Assembly: GCA_964372915.1 (NCBI GenBank)
Contig: CAYJRN010000001.1
Span: 100,305 to 164,304 of the forward strand
Reading direction: 5' to 3'
DNA from: an uncultured Planctomycetales bacterium
GTDB lineage: Bacteria > Omnitrophota > Gorgyraeia > Zapsychrales > JAHFFX01
Length of the DNA stretch: 64,000 nucleotides
The notes beneath the pieces are model-generated. The model had not been told where the DNA came from, did not search any database, and saw only the letters and a list, made by a program, of their open reading frames with translations. A program made the position numbers and the translations under genes. Below, piece after piece: positions 4,387-11,313 of the stretch (position 1 is the stretch's first letter; each line of letters opens with the position of its first letter).

Positions 4387-6306
4387 TTGAAGGATGTCTG
4401 TATGAACATGAACAAAAGTCAAAAACTCAAAATAAAAAGACCACACGGGCGAATCCCTCCTCAAGGCGAGACTCCCCCCAACAACAATTGGTTCTTGTGG
4501 GCGGGAATGGTTTTATTGGCACTGCTTTTTTTAAGCCAGCCGAATTTGAACTCGATGACGCCCAGGCAGGAAATGAAATACAGTGAATTTTACGCGCGCC
4601 TTGAGAAAAACAAAGAGACCAGCGACATTCAAAAGCTCTCCTTGACGGACAATATCATTACCGGAAGCCTCAAAAACGGAAACACCTTCACCGTCCATAT
4701 CCCCACCGACGACAAGGCTATTATGGATCTCATCCGAGAAAACGTGAACGACTTCGAGGTCGTACCAGCCAAGACATTTTGGGCGAACCTTTTCTTTACC
4801 TTTATGCCGGTCCTTGTCTTTGTCGCTTTGCTCTGGTTCGTCTCTTATCGCGGAGCGCAGGTGGGAAACAAGATTTGGTCGTTCGGCAAATCGCGGGCCA
4901 AGATGAACAACAAGAACATGACAATCACCTTCAACGACGTCGCCGGGGTCGATGAGGCCAAGGAAGAGCTGCAGGAAATCATTGAATTCTTAAAAGAGCC
5001 TAAGAGGTTTCAACGGCTCGGAGGAAAGATTCCCAAAGGCGTTCTCTTGATTGGCCCGCCGGGAACCGGCAAGACACTTTTGGCCAAGGCTGTCTCGGGC
5101 GAAGCCGATGTTCCATTTTTCTCTTTGAGCGGCTCAGATTTCGTTGAGATGTTCGTAGGGGTAGGCGCTTCGCGCGTACGCGACCTCTTTGAACAGGGCC
5201 GTAAGGCGTCAAAGACCTCCGGCAAAGGCTGCATTATTTTCATCGATGAGATTGATGCCGTAGGACGTTTACGCTTCTCAGGAATCGGCGGAGGACATGA
5301 TGAGCGGGAACAGACATTAAACGCACTTCTGGTCGAAATGGACGGATTCGACACGCAGCATGGTCTCATCATCGTTGCCGCGACCAACCGGCCCGATACC
5401 CTCGATCCGGCGCTTTTGCGCCCCGGGCGTTTCGATCGACAGATTGTCGTCAGCCTTCCGGACCTTGTAGGACGCGAAGCTATTTTGAAGGTCCACACCA
5501 AAAATATCAAACTGGCCGGGAATGTCGATCTTAAAAAAGTGGCTCGGCAGACGGTTTATTTCTCCGGTGCGGATCTGGCCAATGTTTGTAACGAGGGAGC
5601 TCTCCTCGCGGCCCGTCGCAATAAAGACGCCGTGGGACAGGAAGAAATGGAAGCCGCGATTGAACGCGTCATCATGGGGCCGGAAAAAAAGAGCCATGTC
5701 ATTTCAAAGAAAGAACGGGAGATTACCGCTTATCATGAAGCCGGACACGCGCTCTTATCTTTGCTACTGGAGGAAGTCGATACCTTCACGAAAGTCTCTA
5801 TCATTCCCCGAGGCATGGCCGGCGGCTATACTTTGACTCCTCCCATGGAAGACCGGCATTATTCCAGCAAAAAAGAATTGTTGGGGGCACTGTGTGTGAT
5901 CTTAGGCGGAAGGGCCGCGGAAGAAATTTGCTTACACGACGTCACAACGGGCGCCCAAAGTGATTTTCAAAACGCCACCCACACCGCCCGCAAAATGATC
6001 TGCGTCTACGGAATGAGCGAAAAACTCGGACCCATGACCTTGGGGCACCATCACCATCAGGTGTTCTTAGGCAGAGACATGATGGAGCAAAAAGATTACA
6101 GCGAAGAGACCGCCCGTCTCATTGATGAAGAAATCAAAGCCGTCATCGACTCGGCTTATGCCCGGGCCAAGAAACTATTATCCGACAACCGGGATAAGCT
6201 TGAGATTCTCACAAGGAAACTCATGGAAAAAGAGACGCTGGACATTGAAGAGGTCCGGGTGCTTTTGGGGATTGCAGACACCCAAAAGCAAACCGCCGAT
6301 ACCTAA
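4387..6306 (+). CDS. ftsH: ATP-dependent zinc metalloprotease FtsH
   Basis: N-terminal TM helices, Walker A GPPGTGKT, the AAA second region of homology, and the zinc motif HEAGHA. Confidence 0.95.
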
Positions 6307-6350
6307 TTTTATCTTTCCCGTCTTCCTAAAAACAATTAACCGCTAAAACC

Positions 6351-7292: not shown

Positions 7293-8063
7293 ATGCCCGT
7301 TGCCCTTTGGTTCACGATCATCAAACCCGTCATCGAGATTTTTGTTCTGTGGGTGGTTTTTTATCAAATCCTGATTTTCTTTGAAGGCACCCGCGCGTTC
7401 CAGGTCTTGAAAGGAATCACATATGTTTTGATTGCCTTTCTTGTATCTCAGATCCTGGGGTTCGACATCTTAAACTGGCTGTTGACCAAATTCTTCGGCA
7501 TTTCGATCATCGCCGTTCTCATCATCTTCCAGCAGGAATTGCGCCATGGGCTGGCAAGGCTGGGGCAACAACATCTTTTTAACATTACCTTGGAAGAGGC
7601 CGAGATTGTTGCCATCATCGAAGAAATTACCGAAGCGGCGTATCGTCTCTCCAAACGGAAAAATGGATGCATCATCGCGATCGAGCGTGATACCAAACTT
7701 AAGACCTACATCGAGAGCGGTGTCATGATCGATGGCAAGGTGAGCACTGAACTTTTAACAAGTATTTTTAATCCGTTGTCGCCGTTGCACGATGGGGGGG
7801 TTATTACCCGCGGCGAAAGGATTGTCGCGGCCGCGTGTCTTTTCCCGCTTTCGGAGAACCCGAATTTCAACAAGATCATCGGGACAAGGCACCGGGCCGC
7901 CATCGGCTTGACAGAGCAGACAGACGCGGTCGTCGTCTTGGTGTCGGAAGAGACTGGAGAAATTTCGGTTGCCACCGACGGCCGATTCATCCCCATCGTC
8001 AACAAAGAACGCCTCATCAACATTTTGAAGAATCTTTTGGTCGCGCCAAAGAAAAAGAAATGA
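7293..8063 (+). CDS. cdaA: Diadenylate cyclase CdaA (DAC domain, 3 N-terminal TM helices)
   Basis: The DAC core reads IIAIERDTKL...LHDGGVITRGERIVAAACLFPLSE...GTRHRAAIGLTEQTDAVVVLVSEETGEIS. Confidence 0.9.
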   Translation: MPVALWFTIIKPVIEIFVLWVVFYQILIFFEGTRAFQVLKGITYVLIAFLVSQILGFDILNWLLTKFFGISIIAVLIIFQQELRHGLARLGQQHLFNITLEEAEIVAIIEEITEAAYRLSKRKNGCIIAIERDTKLKTYIESGVMIDGKVSTELLTSIFNPLSPLHDGGVITRGERIVAAACLFPLSENPNFNKIIGTRHRAAIGLTEQTDAVVVLVSEETGEISVATDGRFIPIVNKERLINILKNLLVAPKKKK

Positions 8064-8170
8064 TCAAAAAGTGGGTCACGCATAATATTATCCTAAAGCT
8101 CATCGCCCTGGGACTTGCCGTCATCACCTGGATTTATGTCAATGATGAACTGGGCAGGCATATCCGATAG
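8060..8170 (+). pseudogene. cdaR: 36-codon stub resembling the N-terminal TM helix of CdaR (YbbR); CdaR appears truncated
   Basis: MIKKWVTHNIILKLIALGLAVITWIYVN resembles the YbbR/CdaR N-terminus. Its ATG overlaps the cdaA stop (ATGA), as in cdaA-cdaR operons. A stop follows after 36 codons, and no YbbR repeats follow in any frame. Confidence 0.5.
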
Positions 8171-8420
8171 CCGGACCTTCCTGAAAATGGAGCCCCACGG
8201 GCAAGCCCGTGGTACCAAAATATTCTGCTTCGCAGGAATTATCCGCCCGATTCTTTTGAGCTTGGCCGGGGGGGGAAATCTCGCCGAAGCAAGGCTCGCA
8301 TTTCCGCCAAAAATCTTCGATTTTTGGCGAGATCTCACCCCGCTTTGCGGGGCGGACATCCACCCCGCAGTACTTTTGCGGGGTGGTCTTTCGCGAAGGC
8401 GGATAAATTCCAATTCTTCC
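8171..8420. other. GC-rich non-coding segment packed with hairpins
   Basis: CCACGGGCaagGCCCGTGG; ATCTCGCCGAAG...TTTGGCGAGAT; CCCCGCtttgCGGGG; CCACCCCGCagtacttttGCGGGGTGG. No ORF here has recognisable similarity. Confidence 0.45.
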
Positions 8421-8421
8421 T

Positions 8422-9141
8422 ATGCCTAAATTAGGAGTCAATATCGATCACGTTGCCACCTTGCGTCAAGCCAGAAAAGGCTGGGAGCCCGACCCACTGC
8501 AAGCGGCCCGGATCTGTGAACAATCCGGGGCGCACGCTATCGTCGCGCATTTGCGCGAAGACCGTCGACACATCAATGACAGCGACATAACGCGTCTGCG
8601 CAAAACCGTCCGCACAAAATTTAATCTTGAGATGTCGCTCAATCCCAAGATTGTCAAAATCGCCGGCCGCCTTAAGCCGGACCAGGCCACCATCGTGCCC
8701 GAACGGCGCCAAGAAATCACCACCGAAGGCGGCCTCGATACCATCGCGAATTCCGAAAAAATTGAGAAAGTCCTCGGAGCCCTTCGAACAAAAAATATCG
8801 TTGTGAGTCTTTTTGTCGCGCCCGATAAAAAACACATCAAACGCTGTCGAGATTTAGGCATTGAGATGATCGAACTTCACACCGGATGTTACGCGCTGGC
8901 GAAAACGTCCTCCGCTCGTCGACGCGAGCTGAATCAACTCAAAGCCATGACTGAACTCGCCAGCCGATGGGGCATCACGGTGAACGCCGGCCACGGGCTC
9001 AATTATGAAAATACCCCGGCGGTTGCGAGAATTCCCGGAATCAAAGAACTCAATATCGGACACTCGATCATTGCCAGAGCCGTCTTTGTAGGTCTTAAAA
9101 AAGCGGTCCAAGACATGGTCAAACTTTGCGAGGGCAAATGA
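8422..9141 (+). CDS. pdxJ: Pyridoxine 5'-phosphate synthase
   Basis: LGVNIDHVATLRQAR...AHLREDRRHI are PdxJ TIM-barrel signatures; length is ~240 aa. Confidence 0.9.
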   Translation: MPKLGVNIDHVATLRQARKGWEPDPLQAARICEQSGAHAIVAHLREDRRHINDSDITRLRKTVRTKFNLEMSLNPKIVKIAGRLKPDQATIVPERRQEITTEGGLDTIANSEKIEKVLGALRTKNIVVSLFVAPDKKHIKRCRDLGIEMIELHTGCYALAKTSSARRRELNQLKAMTELASRWGITVNAGHGLNYENTPAVARIPGIKELNIGHSIIARAVFVGLKKAVQDMVKLCEGK

Positions 9142-9551
9142 GCAAGATCTTCGGCACCGGTATCGACATCATCGAAATTTCCCGTATCAAAGAGGCCATT
9201 GATCGCTGGGGTGATACTTTCTTAAGCCACGTTTTCACCAAAGAAGAAATTGTCTACGCCAAGAAACACCGCTTTCCTAATCAACATTTCGCCGCCCGCT
9301 TCGCCGCCAAAGAGGCGGTCTTGAAGGCCTTTGGCAATAATGCCCACATCAACTGGAAAGACATTCAGATCACCAACGATAAGCACGGCAAACCCGTCTG
9401 CATTTACCTGCCTTGCCGGCAGGCAGGCCCGCTTCGTCCGCGAAGCGAGGCGAGCCGGCAAAGTAAAGACAAGGAATTCAAAAAACAGATTCTGGTTTCC
9501 ATATCCCACACCAAGAATTATGCGGTTGCCAGCGCCATTATTACGTCGTAA
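9138..9551 (+). CDS. acpS: Holo-[acyl-carrier-protein] synthase
   Basis: GTGIDIIEISRI...FAAKEAVLKAFG are AcpS motifs. The ATG overlaps the pdxJ stop, matching the conserved pdxJ-acpS pair. An internal ~35-aa insertion (PCRQAGPLRPRSEASRQSKDKE...) is present. Confidence 0.8.
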   Translation: MSKIFGTGIDIIEISRIKEAIDRWGDTFLSHVFTKEEIVYAKKHRFPNQHFAARFAAKEAVLKAFGNNAHINWKDIQITNDKHGKPVCIYLPCRQAGPLRPRSEASRQSKDKEFKKQILVSISHTKNYAVASAIITS

Positions 9552-11011: not shown

Positions 11012-11250
11012 CTATTCGGTGTCCCCCCGCCGTTTGCTTGTTTGCACTTTTTGAACAAATAGGGACAAGCAAACAAGCGGCGGGGGGATCAAAAGGGAAT
11101 CCTGTCCGCCCCAAAATTGGGGCGGGTTCAATCAGGAACGGTCCCGCCGCTGTAACTGAATTCTTTTCCTGTTTAAAGCCATTACTCTTTTAAGAGTGAG
11201 AAGGCAAGGGAAGAGAGTTTCATTCAGAAGTCAGAAGACCTGCCGAGTAG
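11012..11250 (+). ncRNA. Cobalamin (AdoCbl) riboswitch upstream of metE
   Basis: AAAAGGGAATCCTG..., CGGTCCCGCCGCTGTAACTG (B12-box-like GCCGCTG), GAGAAGGCAAGGGAAG and the 3' AGTCAGAAGACCTGCC motif match the Cbl riboswitch consensus from memory. An intrinsic terminator follows. Confidence 0.7.
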
Positions 11251-11313
11251 CTAGAGCGCATTCCTACTGCGAAGACAGTATCAATCGTGCGTATATTCTG
11301 GGATTTAAACGGG

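Follow-up and report, generated by a model that had tools for sequence, protein, structure and literature searches.

A putative CdaR reduced to its membrane helix and a likely transposase-less IS200-group element between cdaA and pdxJ in an Omnitrophota genome

The region considered here lies between the diadenylate cyclase gene cdaA and the pyridoxine 5'-phosphate synthase gene pdxJ in a 64-kb stretch of DNA, referred to below as the window (the whole stretch that was analysed). In this region, a 36-codon open reading frame (ORF) is followed by 251 nt of hairpin-rich non-coding DNA. The two components are very probably separate things: the ORF would encode a functional minimal form of the CdaA regulator CdaR, here called mini-CdaR, and the hairpin DNA would be a transposase-less derivative of an insertion sequence (IS) of the IS200 group. 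Mini-CdaR is a new form of a known regulator, and the hairpin cluster belongs to an already known kind of mobile element.

The local gene order in the window is ftsH, folP, cdaA, the 36-codon ORF, the 251 nt of non-coding DNA, pdxJ and acpS. The CdaA encoded here shares 60-81% identity with the CdaA proteins of about 55 Omnitrophota metagenome-assembled genomes (MAGs), and the source genome belongs to the Omnitrophota. The ATG of the ORF at position 8060 overlaps the TGA of cdaA (8061-8063), its TAG occupies 8168-8170, and the product reads MIKKWVTHNIILKLIALGLAVITWIYVNDELGRHIR. The initial annotation of the window had described an overlapping start with a CdaR-like transmembrane (TM) helix, and a stop after 36 codons with no YbbR repeats beyond it. 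Both descriptions hold: the start lies within an ATGA, the helix shows profile homology to CdaR N-termini, as set out below, and Pfam detects no YbbR domain 3' of cdaA in any frame of 8171-8420. Six YbbR-bearing CdaR proteins, together with P0262, were also compared with the 64-kb window by tblastn. The sole matching stretch was 8057-8263, and the intact copy of CdaR for which the initial annotation had proposed such a search was thus not found in the window. Genome coverage in this analysis equals the 64 kb of the window, and a second YbbR protein or a transposase (TnpA) may be encoded elsewhere in the genome.

The conservation of the micro-ORF was assessed in cdaA loci sampled at one genome per species across the Omnitrophota, amounting to about 55 loci and 57 ORF sequences. 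Each locus that extends past cdaA contains exactly one match to the micro-ORF profile, always directly 3' of cdaA and 31-48 amino acids (aa) long, with a mode of 32. The positions of the ATG start and of the stop codon are kept, 53 of the 57 sequences being 31-37 aa in length, and 33 of the 57 share with cdaA an ATGA in which start and stop codon overlap. The next gene is pdxJ in all Omnitrophota loci except L012 and L051, where the sequence covered contains no pdxJ match. Over all pairs of micro-ORFs, the differences at the first, second and third codon positions are 0.37, 0.17 and 0.61, respectively, third positions being 3.6 times more variable than second ones; therefore, the micro-ORF behaves as a translated sequence. 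AlphaFold2 predicts a single continuous helix for residues 2-35 of the 36-aa protein (predicted local distance difference test, pLDDT, of 91), and the hydropathy peak marks residues 9-28 as its hydrophobic core, preceded by lysines. When a database of 5.8 billion proteins was searched with the micro-ORF profile, a 48-aa family member being placed first in the query alignment, 411 clusters at 90% identity were obtained, and the best 120 of the 411 are all 32-54 aa long. Several micro-proteins of 32-48 aa (among them P0030, P0047, P0052 and P0062) bear the IMG/JGI label 'YbbR domain-containing protein' while containing no YbbR domain, which is an annotation artefact.

It could be argued that the micro-ORF is not translated at all and is conserved as a regulatory or terminator region at the 3' end of cdaA, or as a leader of pdxJ. 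Its very small size, and the lack of any Pfam or NCBIfam match, would agree with such a role. However, the excess of third-position changes and the maintained placement of start, stop and ATGA overlap are at odds with it, as are the conservation at the amino-acid level, which follows the pattern of an amphipathic hydrophobic helix, and the homology to the N-termini of longer proteins. An untranslated conserved region is consequently regarded as highly improbable.

The relationship to those longer proteins was examined with a homology profile composed of the window ORF and 120 database members, which was searched against 1.84 billion cluster representatives. Most of the 234 matches are 30-70 aa long. 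The same profile also recognises the N-termini (approximately residues 1-35) of longer proteins in two size ranges, 131-156 aa and 252-323 aa, with library-wide E-values from 1e-5 to 6e-10. All ten of the ten long forms tested match the Pfam YbbR domain (PF07949) in one to three stretches, the match of P0228 (20.1 bits) lying below the Pfam cut-off. The short and the long CdaR forms have residues N9, L12, K13, L17, A20 and W24 in common without exception. The genomic context of two long forms was looked up: P0156 (147 aa) occupies the slot folP-cdaA-[147 aa]-pdxJ, and P0209 (323 aa) the slot cdaA-[323 aa]-pdxJ-acpS-kinase. The CdaA of the long-form genomes is 51% identical to the CdaA of the window. 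In a Kiritimatiellota locus, cdaA is followed by a YbbR protein of 349 aa. There is, in one and the same slot, a graded series running from three or more YbbR domains to one and then to none.

With regard to membership in the CdaR/YbbR family, the YbbR domain is absent from the 36-aa protein, and the homologous N-terminal TM helix and the slot directly 3' of cdaA are present. Judged by these sequence features, it is not a member of the YbbR-domain family but a homologue of the N-terminal segment of CdaR only, in other words a CdaR reduced to its N-terminal membrane helix. The forms represented by P0156 and P0209 look like the intermediate and ancestral stages of this reduction. Across the sampled Omnitrophota, the TM-only state is fixed, as the lineage-wide normal form of the protein. 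A loose literature search pairing CdaR with Omnitrophota names, or with names from the Planctomycetes-Verrucomicrobia-Chlamydiae (PVC) group, gave no mention of CdaR among the results listed.

The initial annotation had favoured a different history, namely that the 36-aa ORF is the remnant of a cdaR gene truncated recently in this genome, and that the hairpin DNA is the scar of the deletion or insertion that removed the rest. Such an event would produce an ORF that is homologous to the CdaR N-terminus with no YbbR domain after it, as observed, and the spacer of the window is also the longest among the relatives. The comparison with sister loci speaks against a private scar, since short ORFs of the same kind occur in about 55 other Omnitrophota species that have short spacers and do not carry the element. 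Moreover, the ORF shows a coding substitution pattern, and the element has sharp ends of its own. The element begins 16 nt past the stop codon, and relatives without it have an equally short ORF; because of these two facts, it is concluded that the element did not shorten cdaR and that its insertion is unrelated to cdaR length. The probability of a recent truncation is close to negligible. The related suggestion of altered c-di-AMP control through loss of CdaR in this genome is likewise not upheld, the short form being the conserved state in the Omnitrophota loci examined. The ORF is kept in relatives as a small membrane protein and the adjoining region matches no structured RNA, a combination that the initial annotation had itself associated with a micro-protein rather than a remnant.

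The spacer between the stop codon of mini-cdaR and the start of pdxJ (8171-8421) ranks with a cobalamin riboswitch and tRNAs among the most strongly structured parts of the window. Its predicted fold has z-scores of -4.9 and -4.7 on the two strands relative to shuffled sequences, none of 200 shuffles being as good, and it contains at least five perfect or near-perfect hairpins. The earlier description of some 250 bp with at least four strong hairpins is in this respect confirmed; of its 'GC-rich' character a modest excess is left, with a GC content of 0.53-0.59 compared with about 0.48 for the window. The spacer sequence is identical across independent Logan assemblies. In relatives, the distance between the micro-ORF and pdxJ ranges from -13 to 113 nt, with one further spacer of 170 nt (L006) and a median of about 20 nt, and the 251 nt of the window is the longest. 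Taking out the element at 8187-8408 leaves a spacer of about 29 nt, which falls within the range of the relatives. The element would thus have been inserted into a spacer of this size, and the junction without it would read CCTTCCTGAAA|TTCCAATTCTTCCT, with or without TTTAT. None of the other Omnitrophota loci examined carries it in this spacer.

The boundaries of the element were indicated by the behaviour of assemblies as well as by the distribution of its sequence. All upstream contigs end at 8216 and all downstream contigs begin at 8187, with an overlap of exactly 30 nt, in the independent Logan assemblies made for this strain (L001-L005, L066-L071; at least six sequencing runs). The strain is present in the samples ERR4904390-93 and ERR3478686-87. 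The breaks fall on the 30-mer 8187-8216 because a de Bruijn graph with k=31 breaks at a repeated 30-mer, and they are an assembly artefact arising from an IS end that is present in multiple copies in the community. At least 120 metagenome contigs contain the exact 24-mer 8193-8216, and the sequences on either side of it are unrelated from contig to contig. Copies of the family have a sharp start at (A/G)TGGAG, six bases before the invariant hairpin CCCCACGGGCAAGCCCGTGG, and a sharp end at ...GGTCTTCTGCGAAGGCGGATAAA, which follows a second hairpin resembling the first. The likeness of the two hairpins is also seen in the covariance model of the 3' hairpin, which matches the 5' hairpin with 18.3 bits. 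Flank profiles of 63 copies revealed neither terminal inverted repeats nor a target-site duplication, no direct repeat being enriched at any offset. Family members range from 119 to 269 nt, their interior is a variable mosaic of extra hairpins, and their predicted folds consist of three domains in series. In the 3' module, 85.5% of the cells are paired and double changes are found in 10 of 14 pairs, a result not approached in any of 500 shuffles or in any slid register.

The window element conforms to this pattern at both of its ends. It agrees exactly with the family over the first 30 nt and comes close to the consensus over roughly the last 22 nt at the 3' end, and its left-end (LE) module scores 27.8 bits (E=1e-4) against the covariance model of the family 3' module, in whose training set the window copy is included. 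The stem of its 3' hairpin departs from the consensus by compensatory changes. The closing helix formed by TTATCCGCC and GGCGGATAA is retained, an architecture seen in other family members as well, and the interior at 8217-8360 shows no similarity to other family copies. A second copy was not found in the 64-kb window by blastn-short, motif scans or a filter-free covariance-model search. In the metagenome loci, the density is about one copy per locus, and only 2 of 120 loci contain a second copy in the sequence around the first. The genes next to the copies are unrelated to one another, and all orientations occur, with a 2:1 bias. A protein encoded beside one copy shares 82% identity with a protein of a 'Deltaproteobacteria bacterium' MAG, and the family is spread over many sediment and groundwater metagenomes and probably over more than one phylum. 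Neither viral contigs nor phage records contain a match to the element, and nothing was found on its sequences in the searchable literature.

A further copy was detected in the same operon by a covariance-model search with the 3' module. In the Omnitrophota MAG ERP119705_co25_670 (L047, 5584-5705), a variant with the 5' hairpin CCCCCGCGGGCTAAAGCCCGCGG is located in the last codons of pdxJ and lengthens the ORF to 265 aa, compared with 239 aa in the window. The family has struck this operon at least twice independently, once in the window and once in L047, and these two insertions lend indirect support to a possible mobilisation in trans by a TnpA of the host genome.

Two structural peculiarities of family members are recorded as separate observations. 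In L085, L087, L089, L096 and L126, a second GC-rich hairpin unit, CCTGCACGC...GCACGCAGGCG, is nested in the stem of the 3' terminal hairpin and constitutes an insertion within an insertion. In addition, two different upstream sequences, TTATCCNCC and (A/C)ATCCNCC-GAAGCA, covary with the GGNGGAT at the 3' terminus, as in L098, L095 and L148 and, in the window, at 8239-8247 and 8398-8406. The helix with the second partner contains an internal loop of the symmetric GAA/GAA type, and either pairing excludes the other; the two may reflect a duplicated module or alternative conformations of DNA or RNA.

The identity of the element was settled by a BLAST comparison of a canonical copy with 7.3 Gb of annotated plasmids. 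Sequences in 14 Vibrio plasmid records match the 3' module over 49 nt with 88% identity (E=2e-7), and two further Vibrio plasmid records match it over 33 nt. In the Vibrio record examined, the matching module lies 8 nt upstream of an annotated tnpA gene of the IS200/IS605 family (Pfam Y1_Tnp, E=1.5e-31), and the other end of this insertion sequence contains a hairpin in the flank context of the family 5' hairpin. A second Vibrio plasmid carries a version of about 150 nt without tnpA, with the same layout as in the family. Homologues collected with the Vibrio TnpA are 70-77% identical to it; the NCBI names of some of them include Pirellulales, Pseudomonadota and Geovibrio, the last being annotated as 'ISSod23 family'. 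In twelve tnpA-bearing loci, which encode three further TnpA proteins of this kind, the left ends read TTTATGCGG...AGAA(T/C)ACCACGGGTTTACCCGTGGATGAATGAG, and in five of these twelve (the P0460 set, L206-L210) the right end (RE) reads GTACCACGGGCATGCCCGTGGGAATCTAC. The RE hairpin of the autonomous elements in L206-L210, GTACCACGGGCATGCCCGTGGG, is as a reverse complement nearly identical to the window hairpin at 8193-8216. The left and right ends of the tnpA loci are the reverse complements of the 3' and 5' ends of the family, respectively, and the family therefore consists of ends-only, transposase-less derivatives of IS200-group elements. A Y1 HUH transposase (TnpA) recognises the hairpin-bearing left and right ends on single-stranded DNA.

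Ends-only derivatives of this kind, lacking a transposase gene, are known in the IS200/IS605 family as palindrome-associated transposable elements (PATEs), whose definition and family traits are given in PMC7290912. The present family shows four features of this class: the lack of inverted terminal repeats and of target duplication, the similarity of the two end hairpins, the homology of the ends to the LE and RE of autonomous elements, and the absence of a transposase gene.

The initial annotation had offered an embedded structured RNA or a small element as explanations of the hairpin cluster, and of these the small element, of IS200 type, has been retained. The strong fold z-score, the covarying stems of the family and the two alternative partners that covary with the 3' end would also be expected of a structured cis-regulatory RNA, such as a riboswitch or leader of pdxJ, or of an independent small RNA gene. 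However, the region is absent upstream of pdxJ in other Omnitrophota, and family copies adjoin unrelated genes in all four orientations. No conserved promoter is found upstream of family copies, and the window element contains neither a + strand promoter nor a canonical terminator. A search with 4227 Rfam covariance models gave no match better than E=3 in 7900-8600 (threshold E<=10) and none on canonical copies (threshold E<=0.5), and the cobalamin riboswitch and tRNAs are all that the window yields at the gathering threshold. Stem mismatches of the G:T and A:C types are equally frequent (32 and 28) and display no strand asymmetry; nothing therefore points to a role confined to one transcribed strand. 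Since the ends are, in addition, homologous to the IS200 ends that flank tnpA, a regulatory or small RNA at this position is very unlikely. A further possibility, less likely than the partnership of mini-CdaR with CdaA considered below, is that the interior of the element, with its covarying mosaic and two alternative 3'-end partners, encodes a functional RNA beyond the DNA structure needed for transposition.

Another class of palindromic repeat has to be weighed against the ends-only IS200 derivative. Repetitive extragenic palindromic (REP) sequences and bacterial interspersed mosaic elements (BIMEs) moved by a REP-associated tyrosine transposase (RAYT) would account for a conserved short motif followed by a palindrome, for the mosaic modular interior and for intergenic dispersal at low density; RAYTs are relatives of the IS200 TnpA. 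A RAYT-like ORF with a Y1_Tnp domain (195 aa, Pfam E=1.5e-5) is even located 3 kb from the copy in L089, at 5729-6316. It lies, however, in a type I restriction-modification operon, with the specificity subunit encoded on one side and the restriction subunit on the other, and has no flanking hairpins, for which reasons its candidature as the transposase of the element was judged coincidental. Furthermore, the LE and RE of genuine tnpA-bearing IS200-group elements can be aligned with the two ends of the family, and the alignment takes in the terminal TTTAT and ...TC(T/C)A(T/C). A REP- or BIME-type origin is accordingly considered distinctly unlikely.

Several points weigh against one or the other part of the preferred two-part reading. 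With regard to mini-CdaR, a TM helix is compositionally simple and the profile matches could be inflated, a worry that is weakened because the slot is syntenic and the polar and aromatic residues N9, K13 and W24 are invariant. The 36-aa protein obtained no useful match from Pfam (E<=1) or NCBIfam, and the binding of CdaA by mini-CdaR is proposed by analogy with CdaR of Firmicutes (Listeria, Bacillus). With regard to the element, TTTAT is invariant at the LE junction in autonomous and ends-only copies alike, and may be either the end of the element or a target tetra- or pentanucleotide. No empty site was found for this locus, since L006 and L010, the closest genomes, have spacers that cannot be aligned. 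No TnpA was detected near any of the 120 copies examined or in the 64-kb window by tblastn with three TnpA/RAYT queries, namely the Vibrio TnpA and other TnpA and RAYT sequences, and mobility at present is accordingly conjectural. All-against-all clustering of the ORFs flanking the copies gave no linked protein family, and the ORFs across the window element have no Pfam match. Finally, the compensatory stem changes and the two alternative 3'-end partners would fit a function in RNA as well. The coordinates of all features are collected in Table 1.

Table 1. Annotated features of the cdaA-pdxJ region in window coordinates
Feature	Position	Strand	Remarks
cdaA	7293-8063	+	membrane-anchored diadenylate cyclase, 256 aa; Pfam DAC E=2e-40, CdaA_N (N-terminal TM domain) E=6.6e-7
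mini-cdaR	8060-8170	+	putative 36-aa single-helix microprotein; homologous to the CdaR/YbbR N-terminal TM helix; ATGA overlap with the cdaA stop
left remnant of the original spacer	8171-8186		from the stop codon to the sharp element boundary ATGGAG
transposase-less IS200/IS605-family element, like a PATE or a miniature inverted-repeat transposable element (MITE), 222 nt	8187-8408	-	tnpA-sense 'top' strand is the window minus strand; RE at 8187, LE at 8408
RE-type subterminal hairpin CCCCACGGGCAAGCCCGTGG + TACC	8193-8216	+	stem 8195-8202/8205-8212
long-range closing helix TTATCCGCC (8239-8247)/GGCGGATAA (8398-8406)	8239-8406	+	inverted repeats; present in the minimum free energy fold
private internal hairpins inside the closing helix	8270-8288/8323-8341, 8305-8315/8319-8329, 8338-8343/8347-8352	+	inverted repeats
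LE-type terminal module CATCC-[hairpin CCACCCCGCA...TGCGGGGTGG, 8360-8386]-TCTTTCGCGAAGGCGGATAAA	8358-8408	+	covariance model of the family 3' module
right remnant of the original spacer	8409-8421		from the element boundary GGATAAA to the pdxJ ATG at 8422
pdxJ (pyridoxine 5'-phosphate synthase)	8422-9141	+	Pfam PdxJ E=1.5e-96; conserved gene 3' of mini-cdaR

For the mode of action of mini-CdaR, the starting point is what has been reported for the full-length protein. The discussion section of PMC8573169 and PMC8316131 place the interaction between CdaR and CdaA in the transmembrane part at the N-terminus of CdaA. CdaR has been reported both as an activator and as an inhibitor of CdaA, by a mechanism that PMC8573169 calls unclear. 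In the proposed course of events, the extracytoplasmic YbbR domains would have been lost long ago and the single-pass N-terminal membrane helix kept. The ATGA overlap suggests that translation of mini-cdaR is coupled to that of cdaA. Because full-length CdaR binds the N-terminal transmembrane domain of CdaA, mini-CdaR may dock on the same site, and it could then serve the cyclase as a small, constitutive subunit or modulator in the membrane, devoid of an external sensing domain. That mini-CdaR is a working partner of CdaA, and that the essential c-di-AMP cyclase of a whole phylum works with a membrane peptide of 32 aa in place of the multi-domain sensor of other bacteria, is put forward tentatively, as a possibility slightly short of an even chance. 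If it is true, the core regulatory or structural contribution of CdaR is an intramembrane contact between helices, and the YbbR domains are a dispensable input module. The existence of a helix-only CdaR throughout a phylum speaks for the view that the sensor formed by the YbbR repeats is an addition, and mini-CdaR offers a natural minimal system for studying the effect of the helix alone on the activity or oligomerisation of the cyclase. It also illustrates that partners of 32 aa are missed or mislabelled by gene callers and annotators.

The element, for its part, would have landed antisense to the operon between mini-cdaR and pdxJ. Its present effect is likely to be passive, consisting in the separation of formerly close-packed genes and the addition of stable hairpins to a polycistronic mRNA. 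The pdxJ gene is probably still co-transcribed, although it no longer lies at close spacing to the upstream ORF. The ends-only element should also be taken as a caution, since it explains the assembly breaks at this locus and a hairpin cluster that mimics a regulatory RNA.

Other structured or palindromic sequences were noted elsewhere in the window. The acpS gene (9138-9551) contains an in-frame insertion of 57 nt (19 aa), LPCRQAGPLRPRSEASRQS, at 9408-9464, with two GC-rich hairpins. None of the 52 other Omnitrophota AcpS orthologues contains the insertion, whose sequence is the same in independent Logan contigs. Its first hairpin, CCTGCCTTGCCGGCAGGCAGG, is the short palindrome CCTGCC-loop-GGCAGG, which occurs approximately 25 times in 647 kb of element-bearing metagenome loci and in none of the other Omnitrophota cdaA loci. 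The insertion looks like a palindromic insertion tolerated in a protein loop, similar to REP sequences or to the palindromic elements of Rickettsia (Rickettsia palindromic elements, RPEs). The cobalamin riboswitch (Rfam RF00174, 74.6 bits) is situated at 11061-11261, upstream of a methionine-synthase-like gene, and a long perfect hairpin is found at about 11020-11085, just before it.

The closest known counterpart of mini-CdaR is the CdaR of Firmicutes, encoded in cdaA-cdaR-glmM operons. In both cases, the gene lies directly 3' of cdaA, usually with an overlap, and residues of the single-pass N-terminal TM helix are held in common. In contrast, CdaR of Firmicutes comprises about 300-480 aa with YbbR domains, whereas mini-CdaR comprises 31-36 aa with none and has no extracytoplasmic sensing part; the operon continues to glmM in the former and to pdxJ-acpS in the latter. 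The forms P0156 and P0209 share the syntenic position and the homologous TM helix with mini-CdaR, and differ from it in the YbbR domain or domains they have kept and in a CdaA that is only 51% identical. As for the element, it resembles PATEs in being short and free of ORFs, in having a hairpin at both ends without inverted terminal repeats or target duplication, and in its intergenic dispersal, and this likeness extends to ends that are homologous to the LE and RE of ISSod23-like IS200 elements. It differs from them in its interior, which is not a simple product of tnpA deletion but a hairpin mosaic with a conserved closing helix. With the IS200 group itself (Vibrio plasmid NZ_CP033147.1; 'ISSod23 family'), it has in common the LE module ...CAGAA(A/G)ACCACGGGTTTACCCGTGGATGAATG... 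and the RE hairpin GTACC-ACGGGC(A/T)TGCCCGT-GG, the complete insertion sequences of this group being about 650-700 nt long with tnpA, whereas the window element has 222 nt and no tnpA.

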